DNA of 64,000 nt from Candidatus Woesearchaeota archaeon (lineage in GTDB: Archaea > Nanobdellota > Nanobdellia > Woesearchaeales > 21-14-0-10-32-9), in NCBI GenBank assembly GCA_046543095.1, contig JBKHAC010000003.1, positions 4,163-68,162 on the forward strand. Reading direction: 5' to 3'. The position numbers and the translations under genes are program-made. The stretch's first letter is position 1; each line of letters opens with the position of its first letter. Shown piece after piece: positions 12,651-62,836 of this stretch. The notes beneath the pieces were generated by a model. That model did no database searches. It worked only from the letters and a program-made list of their open reading frames with translations, and was not told the origin of the DNA.

Positions 12651-12739
12651 TTACAAATTGGGTTTGATGCCTTGCGGCTTCGTGGGCGATTTTGGACTCA
12701 ATTTGTAATTGATAAGAAAATTCGCCAGCGAAAATTCGC
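12651..12739. other. GC-richer structured intergenic element (10-bp stem plus a 10-nt direct repeat)
   Basis: ttacaaattg (12651-60) pairs with caatttgtaa (12699-708). gaaaattcgc occurs twice (12716-25, 12730-39). Shares aatttgtaat with the hairpin-element family. Confidence 0.3.
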
Positions 12740-12792
12740 GTCAGTACTCTGCGGCTCTGCTGCGCGAGATAGTGGATTTTAGGATTTTCGTT

Positions 12793-13548
12793 TTATTTAT
12801 CTTTGAATGAATTTAGATATATTGCAGTTGTTGTGCCTTTTCCTATTTCGCTTTGTATTTCAAACTCTCCGTTTAATCTTTCTGTGAGTTTTTGTGCTAC
12901 TATTAGGTTTAAGTCGGAGTCGTTCACGTTGAATTTTTGGAGATATTCTTGTTGTGTCGTGCTTATTTTTTTCAGTTGGTCTTTAATGTCAAATCCTTGG
13001 CTTGTATCTTGCACATATAGTTTTATTTTGTTTTCTAACTTTTCTGCGCCGAGTAGAATTGTTCCTTGTTGTGTGTTTGCCTCGCTATATGTTAGCATAT
13101 TTAGTATTGTTCTTTGTAGGTTTGTTTGGTTTGCAAATATTTTTGTTCCTTTAATGCTTTCTATATTTTTTTGTATTTGTAAGTTTCCTTGGTGTGCGTA
13201 GTAGAATGTTGTGAAGATTTCATTTATTGCAGGGTATAGTTGTATTAAGTCGTTTGTTCCGTTTTCTCTTCCTGTTTGTGCTATTTTTATTTGTGCTCGT
13301 GATGCGGACTCTAAGTAGTCTGTTATTTTTTTTGCTTGTTTAATTAAACTGCGGTATGTGTCTTTTTCTTCAGTTTCAATATTTAGTTTTTTTAGTAGTG
13401 TTTCTTGTTCGTCTTCTATTTCTTTTAACAATTCTGTTAAGGCGAGATGTTGTGTTTTGAGTTCGTTTGTGTGTTTCGTTGCAAGTATTAATCTCTCTTT
13501 ATGTGTTAGTTGTGGGGTTTCGTTTTGTTTTGTTTCTTTTTTATTCAT
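12793..13548 (-). CDS. GHKL/HATPase_c-domain protein (histidine-kinase-like), coiled-coil N-terminus
   Basis: The C-terminus carries G-box-like motifs: QDTSQGFD, LNGEFEIQSEIGKGTTTAIYL. No clear H-box, and no receiver gene nearby. Confidence 0.55.
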   Translation of the reverse strand: MNKKETKQNETPQLTHKERLILATKHTNELKTQHLALTELLKEIEDEQETLLKKLNIETEEKDTYRSLIKQAKKITDYLESASRAQIKIAQTGRENGTNDLIQLYPAINEIFTTFYYAHQGNLQIQKNIESIKGTKIFANQTNLQRTILNMLTYSEANTQQGTILLGAEKLENKIKLYVQDTSQGFDIKDQLKKISTTQQEYLQKFNVNDSDLNLIVAQKLTERLNGEFEIQSEIGKGTTTAIYLNSFKDK

Positions 13549-13906: not shown

Positions 13907-14797
13907 ATGGTTAAAAAACGTATTGATTTGAAACTTGTAGATAAAAAGAACTTGATCAAAGCTCCTTTTAATTATTTCTTACTTTACATAAAAGGTTTAT
14001 TTATGGGTTTATTTGACTTAGTTCCAGGTATATCAGGGGGATCTGTTGCTTTAATTGCAGGTATTTATGAAGATTTAATTTTTGAGATAAATAATGTATT
14101 TTCTTTTCTAAAAAGTTTGTTGTCTTTCAATTTTAATAAAATAAAAACTGCGTGGTTAAATATAAGCATAGTATTTATAGTTATCTTGGGTGTTGGTATT
14201 ATTTCGGGAATATTTTTAAGTGTATTTACTTTAAGTTTTCTGCTCAAAAATTACTTTGTTGAAACTATGGGTTTCATTGCGGGTTTAATTTTGTTATCGG
14301 GTATTTTGTTATCTAAAAAATATTTATCTAAAAATAATTATTTATTTGGCGTAATAGGGCTATGTTTAGGAATAGTAATATCTATATTATCGCCTATTGC
14401 GGGACACTCGTTTAGTTTTTTTCAAATCTTTTTGCTTGGCGCGATAACTATTACTGCTATGATTTTACCAGGTATATCTGGTGCACTTATTCTTCTTCTT
14501 TTAGGCGGTTATGATTTTATGCTCTTTGCATTAAAAAACATATCTGATAATTATTTAGTTGTTATTATCTTTTTATTAGGTGCTGTGATGGGTCTTGGTG
14601 TGTTCAGCAGAGGTATATCTTATTTATTAAAAAAATATCATAATAAAACATTAATATTTCTCTCAGCTTTAATGGTTGGTGCAACTACGAAGCCTATTAT
14701 TGAGGTTAGTGGTCATCAGAATTATTTGTTTAGTTTGCCTTTTTTTATTTTGGCTATTTTGTTAGGTTTTATTTTTTATAGGAAATTTAATTTATAA
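13907..14797 (+). CDS. DUF368 family membrane protein (polyprenyl-phosphate transporter family)
   Basis: Duplicated PGISGG / PGISGA motifs in a polytopic membrane protein. Confidence 0.7.
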   Translation: MVKKRIDLKLVDKKNLIKAPFNYFLLYIKGLFMGLFDLVPGISGGSVALIAGIYEDLIFEINNVFSFLKSLLSFNFNKIKTAWLNISIVFIVILGVGIISGIFLSVFTLSFLLKNYFVETMGFIAGLILLSGILLSKKYLSKNNYLFGVIGLCLGIVISILSPIAGHSFSFFQIFLLGAITITAMILPGISGALILLLLGGYDFMLFALKNISDNYLVVIIFLLGAVMGLGVFSRGISYLLKKYHNKTLIFLSALMVGATTKPIIEVSGHQNYLFSLPFFILAILLGFIFYRKFNL

Positions 14798-14810
14798 GTT
14801 AGATGTTTGA

Positions 14811-14944
14811 TTAGTTGGCGACATAAAAAATTTGTAATGCCTAAAAGAGCCTTAGGTTCGCACTCGTTAACACTAGACTCGGTTTATAAAGCGAGGATCA
14901 AAGCGATGCTCTTTGCATTACAAAAAACTTTTATCGCGGATTAG
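14811..14944 (+). repeat. hairpin-element family 1, copy 1A (134 bp)
   Basis: 6 mismatches in 134 nt versus the reverse complement of 19947..20080. Its ends form a long imperfect stem (ggcgacat..tttgtaatgcctaaaagagc / gctctttgcattacaaa..atcgc). Confidence 0.8.
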
Positions 14945-14988
14945 ATTTAATAATTTAAAATAAAAATTTAATAAAAAAGTTTGATTAG

Positions 14989-15718: not shown

Positions 15719-15915
15719 GGCCTCGCAGGTTTCATGCGCCTCATAGAACTTCTAATAAACTTTTAACAATTTTGCTATTTTGCCTAAAGTCTTGGCGTAG
15801 TTCTAGATTAAACTTGCAGAGTTGTGTGGGTCTCTATTTAAATGTCTAGATATCGTGAAAAAGGAGCATGCCTCATTTAAGATTTTATTGATTCGAAAAG
15901 GATTTATGCGAGGTC
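15719..15915 (+). mobile_element. MITE-like family 2, diverged copy 2C
   Basis: Aligns with 43710..43874 over aaatgtcta..aaaaggagcat..ttaagattttattgattcgaaaaggattt. The left end carries two TIR-like segments (ggcctcgca.., gcgcctcatagaa..). No clean TSD. Confidence 0.5.
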
Positions 15916-15921
15916 ATTTTA

Positions 15922-16051
15922 GTTCGCGACATTAATAAAGTTTAATGCCTAAACGAGTGTTCGATTTACAAATAAAACTTCACTATGCTCGGTATTAAAT
16001 ACTAATTAAAAAACGATACTCGTTGCATTATACAATACTTTTGTCGCTAAC
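15922..16051 (+). repeat. hairpin-element family 1, diverged copy 1C
   Basis: Same architecture as 1A: gttcgcgacat..taatgcctaaacgag / ctcgttgcatta..ttttgtcgc. Shares the central gctcggta motif. Directly abuts copy 2C. Confidence 0.55.
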
Positions 16052-16066
16052 TATTTTTTAGTAAAG

Positions 16067-16074
16067 TTTATAAT
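16067..16074 (+). promoter_or_regulatory. TATA box (tttataat) for the antiporter gene
   Basis: Ends 19 nt before the ATG at 16094, and no SD is visible. This suggests a leaderless or short-leader mRNA. Confidence 0.45.
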
Positions 16075-16093
16075 CTCTTGCATTACATATAGT

Positions 16094-17449: not shown

Positions 17450-17698
17450 TATTTTTTCTTGTATTATTTACTGTATATTTGGGTAGTGGAGTTATATGGT
17501 GCACGAAAATTAAACAACTAATGGGGATTCTTTGAAATTTATTTTTAAAGCTCGAAAATTTGTAATTTTTGTGTAATCAAAGTTATAAAATTAGGTGTTT
17601 TAATCTGACAAATTTTATATTTGCGGGTGTTTTGTTTGATTCTTCCTATCTTAATATAAAAAAACTTAATAAATAAGGAGTGCATTCTATTAAATAAA

Positions 17699-19862: not shown

Positions 19863-19946
19863 GAAATAAAAAGAAAAAATACTTTATTTAAAAGCATGGT
19901 TGAGTACATTAAAAAAGCACTAAAAAATAAGAAACTCATAGAAAAA

Positions 19947-20080
19947 CTAGTCTGCGACAAAAGTTTTTTGTAATGCAAAGAGCATCGCTTTGATCCTCAC
20001 TTTATAAACTGAGTCTAGTGTTAACGAGTGCGAACCTAAGGCTCTTTTAGGCATTACAAATTTTTTATATCGCCAACTAA
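19947..20080 (-). repeat. hairpin-element family 1, copy 1B (inverted relative to 1A)
   Basis: The reverse complement matches 14811..14944 at 128 of 134 positions. Confidence 0.8.
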
Positions 20081-20180
20081 ACAAAGAATAAGATTAAAAA
20101 AATTTAAGATACAAACTTAACTAAGTTCTGTACTAATTTTAGTAAATAAAATTAAAGAAATTATTTTAACAAAAAAGAGT

Positions 20181-21458: not shown

Positions 21459-21581
21459 CGCCCAGGGTGAGATTTGAACTCACGATCCCAAAGGGACAGG
21501 ATGTTTGCGGCATTGTAGGTTCTCTAAAGCACAATGTTGTACTTAGCAATCCTGCGCAATACCAGGCTATGCGACCTGGGC
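21459..21581 (-). tRNA. tRNA-Ser(GCU) with a 41-nt intron at the canonical 37/38 position
   Basis: Acceptor GCCCAGG/CCTGGGC, discriminator G, anticodon stem CAGGA/TCCTG, loop TTGCTA|A. Long variable arm TCCC-TT-GGGA, T arm GTGAG-TTCAAAT-CTCAC. BHB: 4-bp helix TTGC/GCAA flanked by 3-nt bulges TAA and ACA. CCA is not encoded. Confidence 0.9.
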
Positions 21582-22827: not shown

Positions 22828-23481
22828 ATGGTAGCTAAAAAGAAAGATTCATTAAATAAGGGTTCTTTGCCTATTGAGTCTAATGGTATTAGTAATGTGA
22901 CTTATGAGCTTGAGGGTGTTGAGCGCGAGGAGCTTGATGAGAAGAGCAAGCGTAGGCCTAAGGTGTTGGCTGTTTTTTCTAATGAGCGTATTGTGACTGA
23001 GAATAGTAATGAGGCTCGTGAATTGTTTAATCAGAGTAGGTTTGGGTCTGTTCTTGATAATGGTCAAGTTCAGCTTAGTTTGCATGAGGCGTTATATTTG
23101 ATGGAGAAGTCTCGTATTGAAATTGTTGATTATCGTAAGAAAGAAGTTAGTTTTCAAGATTATTTTAAGCGTGCTAATAAAATTGAGCCTAATTTTTGGG
23201 TAAGATATGCTGTATTTAAAGACATGAGGACGAGGGGTTACATAGTTAAAACTGCTTTAAAATTTGGTGCTGATTTTCGTATTTATGATCGTGGTGTCAA
23301 GCCAGGTGAGGATCATGCGAGGTGGGTTGTGTATCCTGTTCATGAGGGTACGACTTTGACGTGGTATGAATTTGCTGCTAAAAACAGGGTTGCGCATTCA
23401 ACTAAAAAAAGATTAATGCTAGCAGTCGTTGATGATGAATCTGATGTGACGTATTGGGAAGTTAAGTGGGTTAGGCCGTAA
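22828..23481 (+). CDS. endA: tRNA-splicing endonuclease
   Basis: C-terminal catalytic domain YIVKTALKFGADFRIYD..HARWVVYPV..KRLMLAVVD. Confidence 0.8.
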   Translation: MVAKKKDSLNKGSLPIESNGISNVTYELEGVEREELDEKSKRRPKVLAVFSNERIVTENSNEARELFNQSRFGSVLDNGQVQLSLHEALYLMEKSRIEIVDYRKKEVSFQDYFKRANKIEPNFWVRYAVFKDMRTRGYIVKTALKFGADFRIYDRGVKPGEDHARWVVYPVHEGTTLTWYEFAAKNRVAHSTKKRLMLAVVDDESDVTYWEVKWVRP

Positions 23482-24143: not shown

Positions 24144-24245
24144 CATAGCATGGTGCCTAAAAGAGCCTTCAAGTTATAAAATTAATTTTACTCAGGTTTA
24201 AAGATGAAATAAACTGCTTTGCTCGTTGCACTATGCACGTGCTAT
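24144..24245 (+). repeat. hairpin-element family 1-like copy 1D
   Basis: Shares gcctaaaagagcctt (15 nt identical to 1A) and a gctcgttgca right arm as in 1C. The outer arms catagca../..tgctat pair. Confidence 0.35.
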
Positions 24246-42906: not shown

Positions 42907-43113
42907 TTAGTTTGTGGTATTTCTTTTTTTATTTTGTATTTTTGGTTTGTGGTTTTTTTGAGTTTTGTCGTTGTATTTTTTCTTGTTTTTTTATCTGAAT
43001 CTAAGATTATTGGTGTTTATTTTATGTTTTTCCGTGTTTCTTCTTATTTTTCTTATTTTTTTCCGTGTTTTGTTTAGTAATTATTTTTAACTTGTTTTAT
43101 TTATTGTTTGTTT

Positions 43114-43623
43114 ATGATTGTTGATTTCAGAAGAGATATTCATTTGAGGGGTGCTGTCTTTGAGGATGTCGCTCGTATCTTGCTTAGACGTCGTAATGAG
43201 AATAATTTTATTTTTCGTGTGTGTAATTTTGATTCTTTATTTGAAATAGTTAAGAAATACAGGTTTAATTGTAGTGGTATTAAAGATGTTTTTTCTTTTT
43301 TCTCTGTGAATCGTTGTCTTTGTGATTTGGTTGAATTTGTTGTTGATAATGTTGAGTCTAGGAATGTTTTAAAAATTAATTTTTATGAGGTTAAATCTAG
43401 GAGGCAGGATGCTAAAAGGAATTATTTTGAGTCTTGTTTGTCTAATCATAATTTCATGGTTGATATGAAAAATAGGGGGTTTGGTGTTTTTGTTATTAGT
43501 TTGGTTTTGTTTGATGATTGGCGGTTTAGTTTTAACGTTTATGATTATGGTTCTGTTTTGTTTAGGGTTTATGATTCTCAGCGTAATAAAACTGTGTTGT
43601 TTCAAAGGCCTTTGAAGGTTTAA
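43114..43623 (+). CDS. hypothetical protein with a PD-(D/E)XK (Hjc/Mrr-like) motif pattern
   Basis: RGAVFEDVARILL (helix Glu), CDLVEFVV (Asp), INFYEVKSRR (ExK). Confidence 0.45.
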   Translation: MIVDFRRDIHLRGAVFEDVARILLRRRNENNFIFRVCNFDSLFEIVKKYRFNCSGIKDVFSFFSVNRCLCDLVEFVVDNVESRNVLKINFYEVKSRRQDAKRNYFESCLSNHNFMVDMKNRGFGVFVISLVLFDDWRFSFNVYDYGSVLFRVYDSQRNKTVLFQRPLKV

Positions 43624-43709
43624 TTCTTTTGTTTTTTTGTGTTTTAGAGTTTTTTTGAGAGTTGTGTTGTTTTATTTTGTTTTGGTGTTTATTTTAATAT
43701 TTGGCATTA

Positions 43710-43874
43710 GGTATTATAGAAATCCTATTAAAATTTTAATAATGATGCTATCTTGCGCAGTCATAGATCAAACAGCTGTGGTGTGTGAGACTCGGTTCAA
43801 ATGTCTAAATAATATGGAAAAGGAGCATAGTATAATTAAGATTTTATTGGTTCGAAAAGGATTTCTATGAGGCC
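43710..43874 (+). mobile_element. MITE-like family 2, copy 2A (165 bp)
   Basis: TIR ggtattatagaaatcctatt versus the reverse complement of the right end, ggcctcatagaaatcctttt (16/20). Flanked by a perfect 8-bp direct repeat tggcatta (43702-09 and 43875-82). Confidence 0.75.
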
Positions 43875-43900
43875 TGGCATTAGTAATATTTTTATATTGG

Positions 43901-44386
43901 TTGGGTTTATTTTTGTTTATGGGTTTTGTTGTTGGTGATGTTTATCGTGTCTCTGCGCCGTTGGGGCCTTTAGTTAAGTATTTGTTGAGTGATAAGTCTG
44001 GGGTGTTGGTTAGGTCTGGGTTTGTTGGTTTATTGGGAGAAGTTGAGGGTTCTAATGCTGTTGCTGCGCAGAGTTATTTATCAGGGGGTGTTTTGAATAT
44101 TTATGATTATAAAAAGTGTTGTGGTGATGAGTATGGTGTTGTTTTTGATGCTATTGATTCGTTTATTGAGGGGAGGGATTTTTCTTTTAAGGGTTTAGCT
44201 GTTGATCGTGATGTTTTTTTTAAAAGTAAAGATGTTCATTTTCTTGCGGGTTATTTGTCTAGGTTCGGTGAATTTTTTAGAAAGCCTGTTTCGCTTGAGG
44301 ATTCTTTGTCTCATTTGAAATGTAGGGTGTTTGAATTCAAATCTTTTAAAGTTGCTAAGTGTGTTTTTGAGAGTTATGTTGTTTGA
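43901..44386 (+). CDS. hypothetical protein
   Basis: + strand-type codon usage. No motif recognised. Start is uncertain (TTG at 43901 or ATG at 43919). Confidence 0.45.
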   Translation: MGLFLFMGFVVGDVYRVSAPLGPLVKYLLSDKSGVLVRSGFVGLLGEVEGSNAVAAQSYLSGGVLNIYDYKKCCGDEYGVVFDAIDSFIEGRDFSFKGLAVDRDVFFKSKDVHFLAGYLSRFGEFFRKPVSLEDSLSHLKCRVFEFKSFKVAKCVFESYVV

Positions 44387-44399
44387 TTTTTTCTTTGTT

Positions 44400-44960
44400 T
44401 TAGCTTTGTAGTTTTACTTCGATGTTTTTTTTCTCTGTGTTTGTGGCTTCGTATAGTTGTTCATCTTTAAATCCGAATAGTTTCGCGATTATGTTGCTTG
44501 GCATTGTTTGTATTTTTGTGTTGTATTCTGTTGTGTTTGCGTTGTATATTCTTCTTGATGCTGCGATTTGGTCTTCTGTTTTTATTAGTTCGTCTTGTAA
44601 TTTTAAGAAGTTCTCGTTTGCTTTAAGGGTTGGGTAGTTCTCTGCGACTGCGAATAGTGTTTTTAGTTTTGAGTCCATAACTTCGTCGCATCCTGCTACT
44701 TTTTTTATGTCTTTTTTATCTTGGGCGTTTATAAGTTCGGTTCTCATCTTGGTGATATCTTCAAGTAATTTCTTTTCGTGTTTTGCGTATCCTTTAACTG
44801 TTTCGACGAGGTTTGGTATGAGGTTTGTTCGTCTTTTTAGTTGTATGTCTATTCCTGCGTATGCTTTCTTTGCGTAATTTTTGAGTTTGATTATATTGTT
44901 GTATGTGATAATTATCCAGAGTATTATTGCGCCTAATATTATTAATAGTATTGTATTCAT
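44400..44960 (-). CDS. lemA: LemA family protein
   Basis: N-terminal TM helix, YNNIIKLKN.., RRIYNANTTEYNTKIQTMPSNIIAKLFGF. Confidence 0.85.
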   Translation of the reverse strand: MNTILLIILGAIILWIIITYNNIIKLKNYAKKAYAGIDIQLKRRTNLIPNLVETVKGYAKHEKKLLEDITKMRTELINAQDKKDIKKVAGCDEVMDSKLKTLFAVAENYPTLKANENFLKLQDELIKTEDQIAASRRIYNANTTEYNTKIQTMPSNIIAKLFGFKDEQLYEATNTEKKNIEVKLQS

Positions 44961-62255: not shown

Positions 62256-62368
62256 TTTGTTAAAATAATGTGTTGTAGTGGTGAATGGGTTTTTGTTTTT
62301 TTCCTTACGTTTTATTAGTTATCCTTTTTTTCTTATTTTTTTAGGTTATATAAAGTATATTCGCGGGT

Positions 62369-62533
62369 GGCATTATAGAAATATTATTAAGATTTTAATA
62401 ATGATGCTATCTTGCGCAGTCATAGATCAAACATCTGTGGTGTGTAGGGCTCGGTTCAAATGTCTAAATAATATGAAAACGGAGCATAGCATCATTAAGA
62501 TTTTATTGATTTAAAAAGAATTTCTATGAGGCC
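62369..62533 (+). mobile_element. MITE-like family 2, copy 2B (165 bp)
   Basis: 149 of 165 positions identical to 2A, with no indels. Flanked by tcgcgggt (62361-68) and tcgtgggt (62534-41), a 7/8 target-site duplication. Confidence 0.75.
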
Positions 62534-62836
62534 TCGTGGGTAGTCGCATGTTTTAAAACAGCTTTTTAAAGCCTAGTCAAACTTTGTTTGACGCTGTATA
62601 TAACACGTAAAAATCAAACAACAATATGAAATTTTTTGAAATGTAATTTTAAAGTTCGAAAATGTATGATTTTCGCTTGTAATTAAACTTTGTTTGATTT
62701 TTCTTGTATGTTGCTCTTCGAAACATATTTATACTAATTATTCTTTCAATGAATTATTAATTGTGAAGTGTTATTTTTTTAATTATTTTTATGTAAATTT
62801 TTATGTGAATATTTTGTTTTTAAAAAAGAGGGGTTG

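Follow-up and report, generated by a model that had tools for sequence, protein, structure and literature searches.

A 165-bp repeat family of an uncultured Woesearchaeota-type archaeon is very probably a family of MITEs

The window analysed here, a 64,000-nt stretch of DNA from an uncultured Woesearchaeota-type DPANN archaeon, contains two similar sequences whose ends are inverted repeats and which are each bracketed by a short direct repeat. Were these sequences, which we call R1, carried to their present sites by transposition, or are they members of an immobile family of regulatory or RNA genes? In our view R1 is very probably a family of MITEs, non-autonomous DNA transposons, here 165 bp in length. 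MITEs are 50-800 bp long, with terminal inverted repeats (TIRs) of at least 10-15 bp and target-site duplications (TSDs) of 2-10 bp. R1 is 165 bp long and non-coding; its TIRs measure 16 bp, copies A and B each have an 8-bp TSD of their own, and the copies are scattered among unrelated flanks. As for the host, the closest taxon-labelled matches of the D-2-hydroxyacid dehydrogenase encoded beside one copy come from Candidatus Woesearchaeota and Nanoarchaeia MAGs (62-63% identity), and other relatives from metagenomes are 78-87% identical.

Copy A (43710-43874, + strand) is a complete element, its limits agreeing with an end-to-end fold and with the breaks of metagenome contigs at its ends. Copy B (62369-62533, + strand) has the same length and is identical to copy A at 149/165 positions, the 16 differences falling in an alignment without a single indel, so that the coordinates and counts of the preliminary description are reproduced. 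A and B are similar exactly up to the TIR ends and no further, their flanks being unrelated. The consensus of the 16-bp TIRs is GGCCTCATAGAAATCC. In copy A the right TIR (43859-43874, - strand) has the consensus form, GGCCTCATAGAAATCC, with no mismatches, and the left TIR (43710-43725, + strand) reads GGTATTATAGAAATCC and agrees with the consensus at 13/16 positions; the left end of copy B is GGCATTATAGAAATAT and its right end, as the reverse complement, GGCCTCATAGAAATTC. When up to 3 mismatches to GGCCTCATAGAAATCC were allowed, four sites were found in the 64-kb window and all four are termini of copies A, B and C, as against 0.19 sites expected in a shuffled window, with none of 100 shuffles reaching four. 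The inverted-repeat ends reported earlier are therefore confined to the ends of the element.

Each of the two copies is bracketed by a direct repeat of its own. At copy A, TGGCATTA stands both at 43702-43709 and at 43875-43882 (8/8, or 9/9 when an ambiguous G is included). At copy B, TCGCGGGT (62361-62368) and TCGTGGGT (62534-62541) agree at 7/8 positions. The duplicated sequences of the two copies (TGGCATTA in A, TCGCGGGT in B) are unrelated to each other. Chance was assessed from every pair of 8-mers at 165-bp spacing in the window, which gives P(8/8) = 1.7e-4 and P(>=7/8) = 1.8e-3, with the boundaries of the element set independently, by where the A/B similarity ends. For both duplications together, in the two copies (A and B) that supply the TSD evidence and have both flanks known, the joint chance is approximately 3e-7. 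The claim of 8-bp duplications at both copies is thus upheld.

Sequence resembling an element end also lies directly beside two insertion points. The GGCATTA within the copy A TSD, TGGCATTA, is the same as the first 7 nt of the left terminus of copy B (62369-62375), and copy C likewise has a TIR-like piece directly outside its left end. Insertion may favour such targets, or the likeness may be due to chance. Around copy A we also observed a 71-nt direct repeat of 72% identity (43619-43689 and 44331-44401) at the 3' ends of the two flanking ORFs (43108-43623 and 43901-44386), in neither of which a Pfam family was found.

The third copy, which had been described as older and as having a duplicated left terminus, answers to that description. 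Copy C (15719-15915, + strand) is an old, diverged member of approximately 75% identity with no clear TSD: a search of both its ends for a flanking duplication of at least 7/8 bases gave none. It is recovered by nhmmer at 15738-15915 with E = 3.6e-46, and the identity of about 75% extends over its right 119 nt (BLAST). The left end carries an additional TIR-like piece of 17 nt (15719-15735, GGCCTCGCAGGTTTCAT), and there is an internal insertion of 13 nt, of a type seen in further metagenome copies represented by loose contig ends. Copy C itself is single-copy in the metagenome at 90% or greater likeness.

A second hairpin repeat family, R2, begins 2-4 nt beyond the right end of copy C with the member R2c (15918-16079, + strand), which is multi-copy. 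The window has four R2 copies (14791-14948 on the + strand, 19943-20100 on the - strand, 15918-16079 and 24153-24235 on the + strand), and the metagenome depth of the family is 124-195 as against 9-11 for single-copy DNA. Two inverted R2 copies, 91% identical, bracket 5 kb with a Na+/H+ antiporter gene, aspS and a DUF4395 gene. We considered a core common to R1 and the other hairpin families and rejected it, since no significant similarity was found and CTCGGTW is only about 2-fold enriched (11 vs 5.5). In Smith-Waterman comparisons with R2, x24 and x47, R1 never scored better than p = 0.05 relative to shuffled sequences in either orientation, and the highest metagenome k-mer depth of R1 is in its arms, not in its core. 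A further repeat of 99 nt and 91% identity occurs at 12700-12798 of the window and at 7450-7548 of L010 (approximately 66.4 kb, on the same contig outside the window) and holds the GC-rich boxes CGCCAGCGAAAATTCGCG...GCGGCTCTGCTGCGCG.

The insertion site of copy B can be followed more closely than the others. Word depth in the flanks of copy B is 55-84 on both sides, compared with about 9 in unique DNA, so these flanks are themselves multi-copy; joined, they fold into one hairpin. They make up a foldback repeat, R5 (62336-62622), which consists of 62336-62368 and 62542-62622, has the arms GGTTATATA...TATATAAC and holds copy B. In three metagenome contigs, two of run X1 (depth 45) and one of run X5, 62366 is followed by TAG and then directly by 62545. 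The junction without copy B reads ...tattcgcggTAGCGCATGTTTTAAAAC..., and the empty site expected when both flanks are put together around a single TSD reads ...tattcgcgggtAGTCGCATGTTTTAAAAC...; the two are two 1-nt indels apart. Copy B is inserted into R5, and at the insertion point the R5 paralogues run through unbroken. The GC-rich 8-mer that serves as the target of copy B in AT-rich DNA is explained by this position inside R5.

A further comparison concerns the length of the spacer between the genes for Impact_N and the 2-hydroxyacid dehydrogenase (2-Hacid_dh), which is 581 bp here and 55 bp in L004, an ENA assembly whose dehydrogenase is 85% identical in protein. The additional spacer of approximately 460 bp is accounted for by copy B, R5 and a repeat common with 17506-17581, which makes the spacer a pile-up of at least three different repeats. 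The last of these is approximately 78 nt long and 77-80% identical between 62610-62687, to the right of copy B, and 17506-17581. A BRE/TATA-like box, GAAACATATTTATAC (also given as GAAACATATTTATA(C)), is conserved in three species approximately 50-110 bp upstream of the dehydrogenase gene (window 62719-62733, L004 3946-3960, L005 3572-3586). Since these relatives are too distant for their spacers to be aligned, the short spacer of L004 counts as support for insertion and not as a clean empty site at the same locus.

On empty sites in relatives, which the preliminary description had proposed as a check, the analysis gave a paralogous case, the uninterrupted R5 copies, and an orthologous short spacer, that of L004; no same-locus empty site in a sister strain was found. 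GCA_964462285.1 belongs to the same population (99.96% identity) and has copy B. The closest LemA relative, in which we looked for an empty site at copy A, has other synteny. No contigs that skip copy A or copy C were found in X1, X2 or X5, copy C is unchanged in X2 and X5, the former from 2024, and there was no presence/absence polymorphism among samples from 2020, 2022 and 2024. The R1 family looks old or slow, because A and B are 10% apart, the TSD of copy B is mutated, copy C is 25% diverged and the samples show no polymorphism.

Evidence for dispersal beyond the window comes from run X1, a microbial-mat metagenome that contains 89-99% of the window's sampled words. Word depth in X1 is 9-11 in the unique flanks and a summed 275-1165 inside the element, at least 27 times the flank depth, where the X1 depths may take in other organisms and give a depth-based estimate only, not a copy number. 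Depth peaks at 1100-1830 in the terminal arms of approximately 45 nt beside the TIRs, not at the element centre, as is expected if a transposase recognises the ends. At least 6-8 distinct long contigs of X1 (0.8-13.5 kb, with a flank-like depth of 9-12) end at each terminus, and the loose ends begin at 43710-43716 and at 43874/5, each with an unrelated flank. Depths and contig breaks of this kind reveal a repeat that is dispersed and has sharp ends. Several metagenome copies have a perfect left TIR, GGCCTCATAG, and copies elsewhere in the metagenome have the right-TIR sequence of copy A, GGCCTCATAGAAATCC, at their left end. Diverged copies with other flanks occur in X2 (2024) and X5 (2022), which are mat samples of another study, and in X3.

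Searches of reference collections were made with two core patterns of R1. Exact scans of approximately 185,000 GTDB species representatives gave 0 and 2 matches, the two being attributable to chance (Clostridia and Bacteroidales), the same patterns gave 0 matches in IMG/VR, and BLASTN of R1 against plasmids and phages found nothing. A scan of metagenome contigs with the core patterns gave one dubious partial match (L001), beside a bacterial-looking gene. Because the two patterns find R1 in neither the GTDB representatives nor IMG/VR, there is no independent lineage in which mobility could be tested.

R1 has no coding capacity. The 77/78-aa ORFs that lie over copies A and B start in unrelated flanking DNA, the frame is lost in copy C through the 13-nt insertion, and no homologues were found among 5.8 billion proteins; they are by-products of the repeat, as had been proposed. 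The statement that the window has no transposase holds at the sensitivity of a Pfam scan, in which none of the 40 ORFs of at least 140 aa in the window matched a transposase family and 12 had no family at all. The other large ORFs are of the housekeeping type (aspS, the Na+/H+ antiporter, SAHH, an aldehyde dehydrogenase, Impact_N, 2-Hacid_dh) or belong to a pilus cluster. An autonomous IS with matching TIRs was found neither in the window nor in those X1 contigs with a match to the terminal 60 nt. The element itself had been described correctly in all details that we checked.

We infer that R1 would be moved in trans by a transposase encoded outside the window, presumably of the DDE type. Such an enzyme would recognise the 16-bp TIRs (GGCCTCATAGAAATCC), and probably also the conserved arms of about 45 nt beside them. 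It would then excise or copy R1 and place it in a target whose two strands are cut 8 bp apart, and repair of this stagger would leave the 8-bp direct repeats. The transposition footprint recognised in the preliminary description now includes, beside the TIRs and TSDs, the varied flanks in the metagenome, the nested copy B and the shorter spacer in L004.

The alternative that survives best leaves the transposon in place and adds a function to it. In copy A the + strand folds end to end with -44.1 kcal/mol (z = -4.3) and the - strand with -21.8 kcal/mol (z = -0.9); for copy B the values are -55.7 and -36.6 kcal/mol. This gap is due to G.U pairs, of which the A and B folds have 10-11 on the + strand and 4 on the - strand. 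The foldback from end to end is most simply the outcome of the palindromic build of the element. The excess of + over - strand folding is something that a purely DNA-level palindrome would not predict. It may be that R1 is a MITE that has also been co-opted as a structured RNA or single-stranded DNA signal, with its G.U-rich + strand foldback under selection. We regard this as unlikely. Besides the strand difference in A and B, it would suit the inner hairpin (hairpin 1), whose 5-6 non-Watson-Crick pairs are all G.T on the + strand with no A.C, a metagenome variant that has U.A in place of two U.G pairs, and the common orientation of copies A, B and C, each upstream of a gene in the same direction.

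Several observations weigh against such selection. The + strand of the window is skewed throughout, whatever the gene direction: GC skew ranges between +0.06 and +0.43, and AT skew is below zero in almost all 2-kb bins. The window probably belongs to a single replichore whose strand bias is unusually strong. Under this skew, G.T wobbles would arise on the + strand from C>T and A>G drift by itself, and the wobbles of A and B, inherited from one master copy, count as one event. In the diverged X3 copy, pairing is kept in 5/9 changes at paired positions, which is the neutral transition rate, and all five are switches from G.U to Watson-Crick pairs. RNAalifold finds 1 compensatory pair in 53, with a positive covariation term. 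For all three copies to share one orientation, p = 0.25. We also tried R1 as a known structured RNA family and rejected this, as no Rfam covariance model matched it, either at the gathering threshold in the scan of the whole window or at E<=1 over 43650-43930. A selected RNA role of R1 is thus unsupported.

A wider form of the same idea, which we hold to be quite improbable, is that R1 and the other foldback families are not just passive MITEs but function as RNA or single-stranded DNA through a G.U-rich end-to-end structure confined to the + strand, and that the enzyme that moves them comes from outside the chromosome. If true, the foldbacks might guide the mobilising enzyme or serve as its recognition module, or they might act as 5'-leaders that regulate the co-oriented genes behind them, and an enzyme supplied by a virus, a plasmid or a host cell would account for the unseen transposase. 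The genome in question is of the symbiont type and about 1 Mb in size.

It is very improbable, in our judgement, that R1 is mobile by a non-DDE route, either an IS200/IS605-type single-strand (HUH) system, as in PATEs, or a site-specific recombinase. A full-length hairpin with strand asymmetry would be in keeping with this, as would a window in which no DDE transposase is seen. IS200/IS605 elements and their PATEs are not known to carry terminal inverted repeats or to duplicate their targets, and the hallmarks of IS200/IS605 PATEs are subterminal hairpins and insertion 3' of a fixed short motif. The 16-bp TIRs, the 8-bp TSDs and the unrelated targets TGGCATTA and TCGCGGGT of R1 point instead to a staggered cut at non-specific targets; they contradict each of the marks of an IS200/IS605-derived PATE (no TIR, no TSD, a fixed insertion motif), and we rejected R1 as an element of that kind.

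We give almost no credence to the reading that R1 is immobile, a conserved family of regulatory or ncRNA genes that was copied along with its surroundings and is flanked by matching 8-mers by chance: the stable fold and the intergenic position of every copy would suit it, but the A/B similarity stops at the TIR ends between unrelated flanks, the two TSDs would jointly arise by chance at about 3e-7, the metagenome has many distinct flanks, copy B breaks an R5 repeat that is intact elsewhere, and a relative has no element between the same genes (Impact_N and the dehydrogenase). A fixed syntenic position beside a gene, which had been named earlier as the sign of such a family, has nothing in its favour.

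R1 resembles prokaryotic MITEs in its size, its TIRs and TSD, its non-coding sequence and intergenic position, its multiple diverged copies and the absence of a nearby transposase, and differs in that its sequence family was not found in the searches of GTDB representatives, IMG/VR, plasmids and phages. The SM1-SM4 MITEs of Sulfolobus solfataricus, reportedly described by Redder et al. in 2001, are said to be 80-190 bp long and non-coding, with TIRs and TSDs, and to be moved by resident IS, their partner IS families having reportedly been recognised through matching TIRs. R1 is also archaeal and non-coding with TIRs and TSDs, but it has no sequence similarity to SM1-SM4, comes from a host of another phylum and has no matched partner IS. 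Correia/NEMIS of Neisseria, ERIC and RUP/BOX are bacterial foldback repeats whose action is at the RNA level, and neighbouring genes are often transcribed together with them. R1 is like them in being small and TIR-bearing and in having a long stem-loop, although it is known here from DNA only and the replicon's compositional skew can account for its folding asymmetry.

The likely family of the mobilising IS is less readily named. MITEs derived from IS6/IS26 (MITEBth2 and MITEHarch3 of ISfinder; PMC6807381) share with R1 an 8-bp TSD and a GG start of the TIRs. Bacterial IS6/IS26 TIRs are marked by GG at positions 1-2 together with G at position 7 (PMC6807381). The seventh base of R1 is A (GGCCTCA), which makes it a partial match to this bacterial signature. 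Archaeal IS6-like TIRs are looser, so the A does not count against those. No IS6-type transposase was seen. TSDs of 8 bp are also made by the ISL3, IS1595, IS256 and IS66 families. We leave the IS family of R1 unassigned, because the IS6/IS26 signature is matched in part and 8-bp TSDs are common to several families.

Our verdict is that R1 is a new family within a known kind of element, the ordinary non-autonomous DNA transposons. Such elements had been thought undescribed in DPANN archaea, which is out of date: in the 2024 archaeal MITE census a Woesearchaea genome is among those of highest density, at 105 MITEs/Mb (PMC11602168). With a high density in Woesearchaea already published, the general picture is unchanged. 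R1 enlarges a thin catalogue of DPANN mobile DNA by a TIR consensus, an 8-bp TSD and conserved arms of approximately 45 nt, and it shows that MITEs in a very small genome nest within one another and swell intergenic spacers, here from 55 to 581 bp. For annotation, R1 can be used to mask spurious 77-78-aa ORFs and to account for contig breaks in MAGs, and it offers a handle for tracing its transposase.

One further feature of the window concerns a tRNA gene. A 123-nt tRNA at 21459-21581 (- strand) was found by Rfam (42.6 bits) and missed by ARAGORN, and it probably contains an intron. A gene for a tRNA-splicing endonuclease with both the N and C domains of tRNA_int_endo lies 1.2 kb from it, at 22828-23481 (+ strand).
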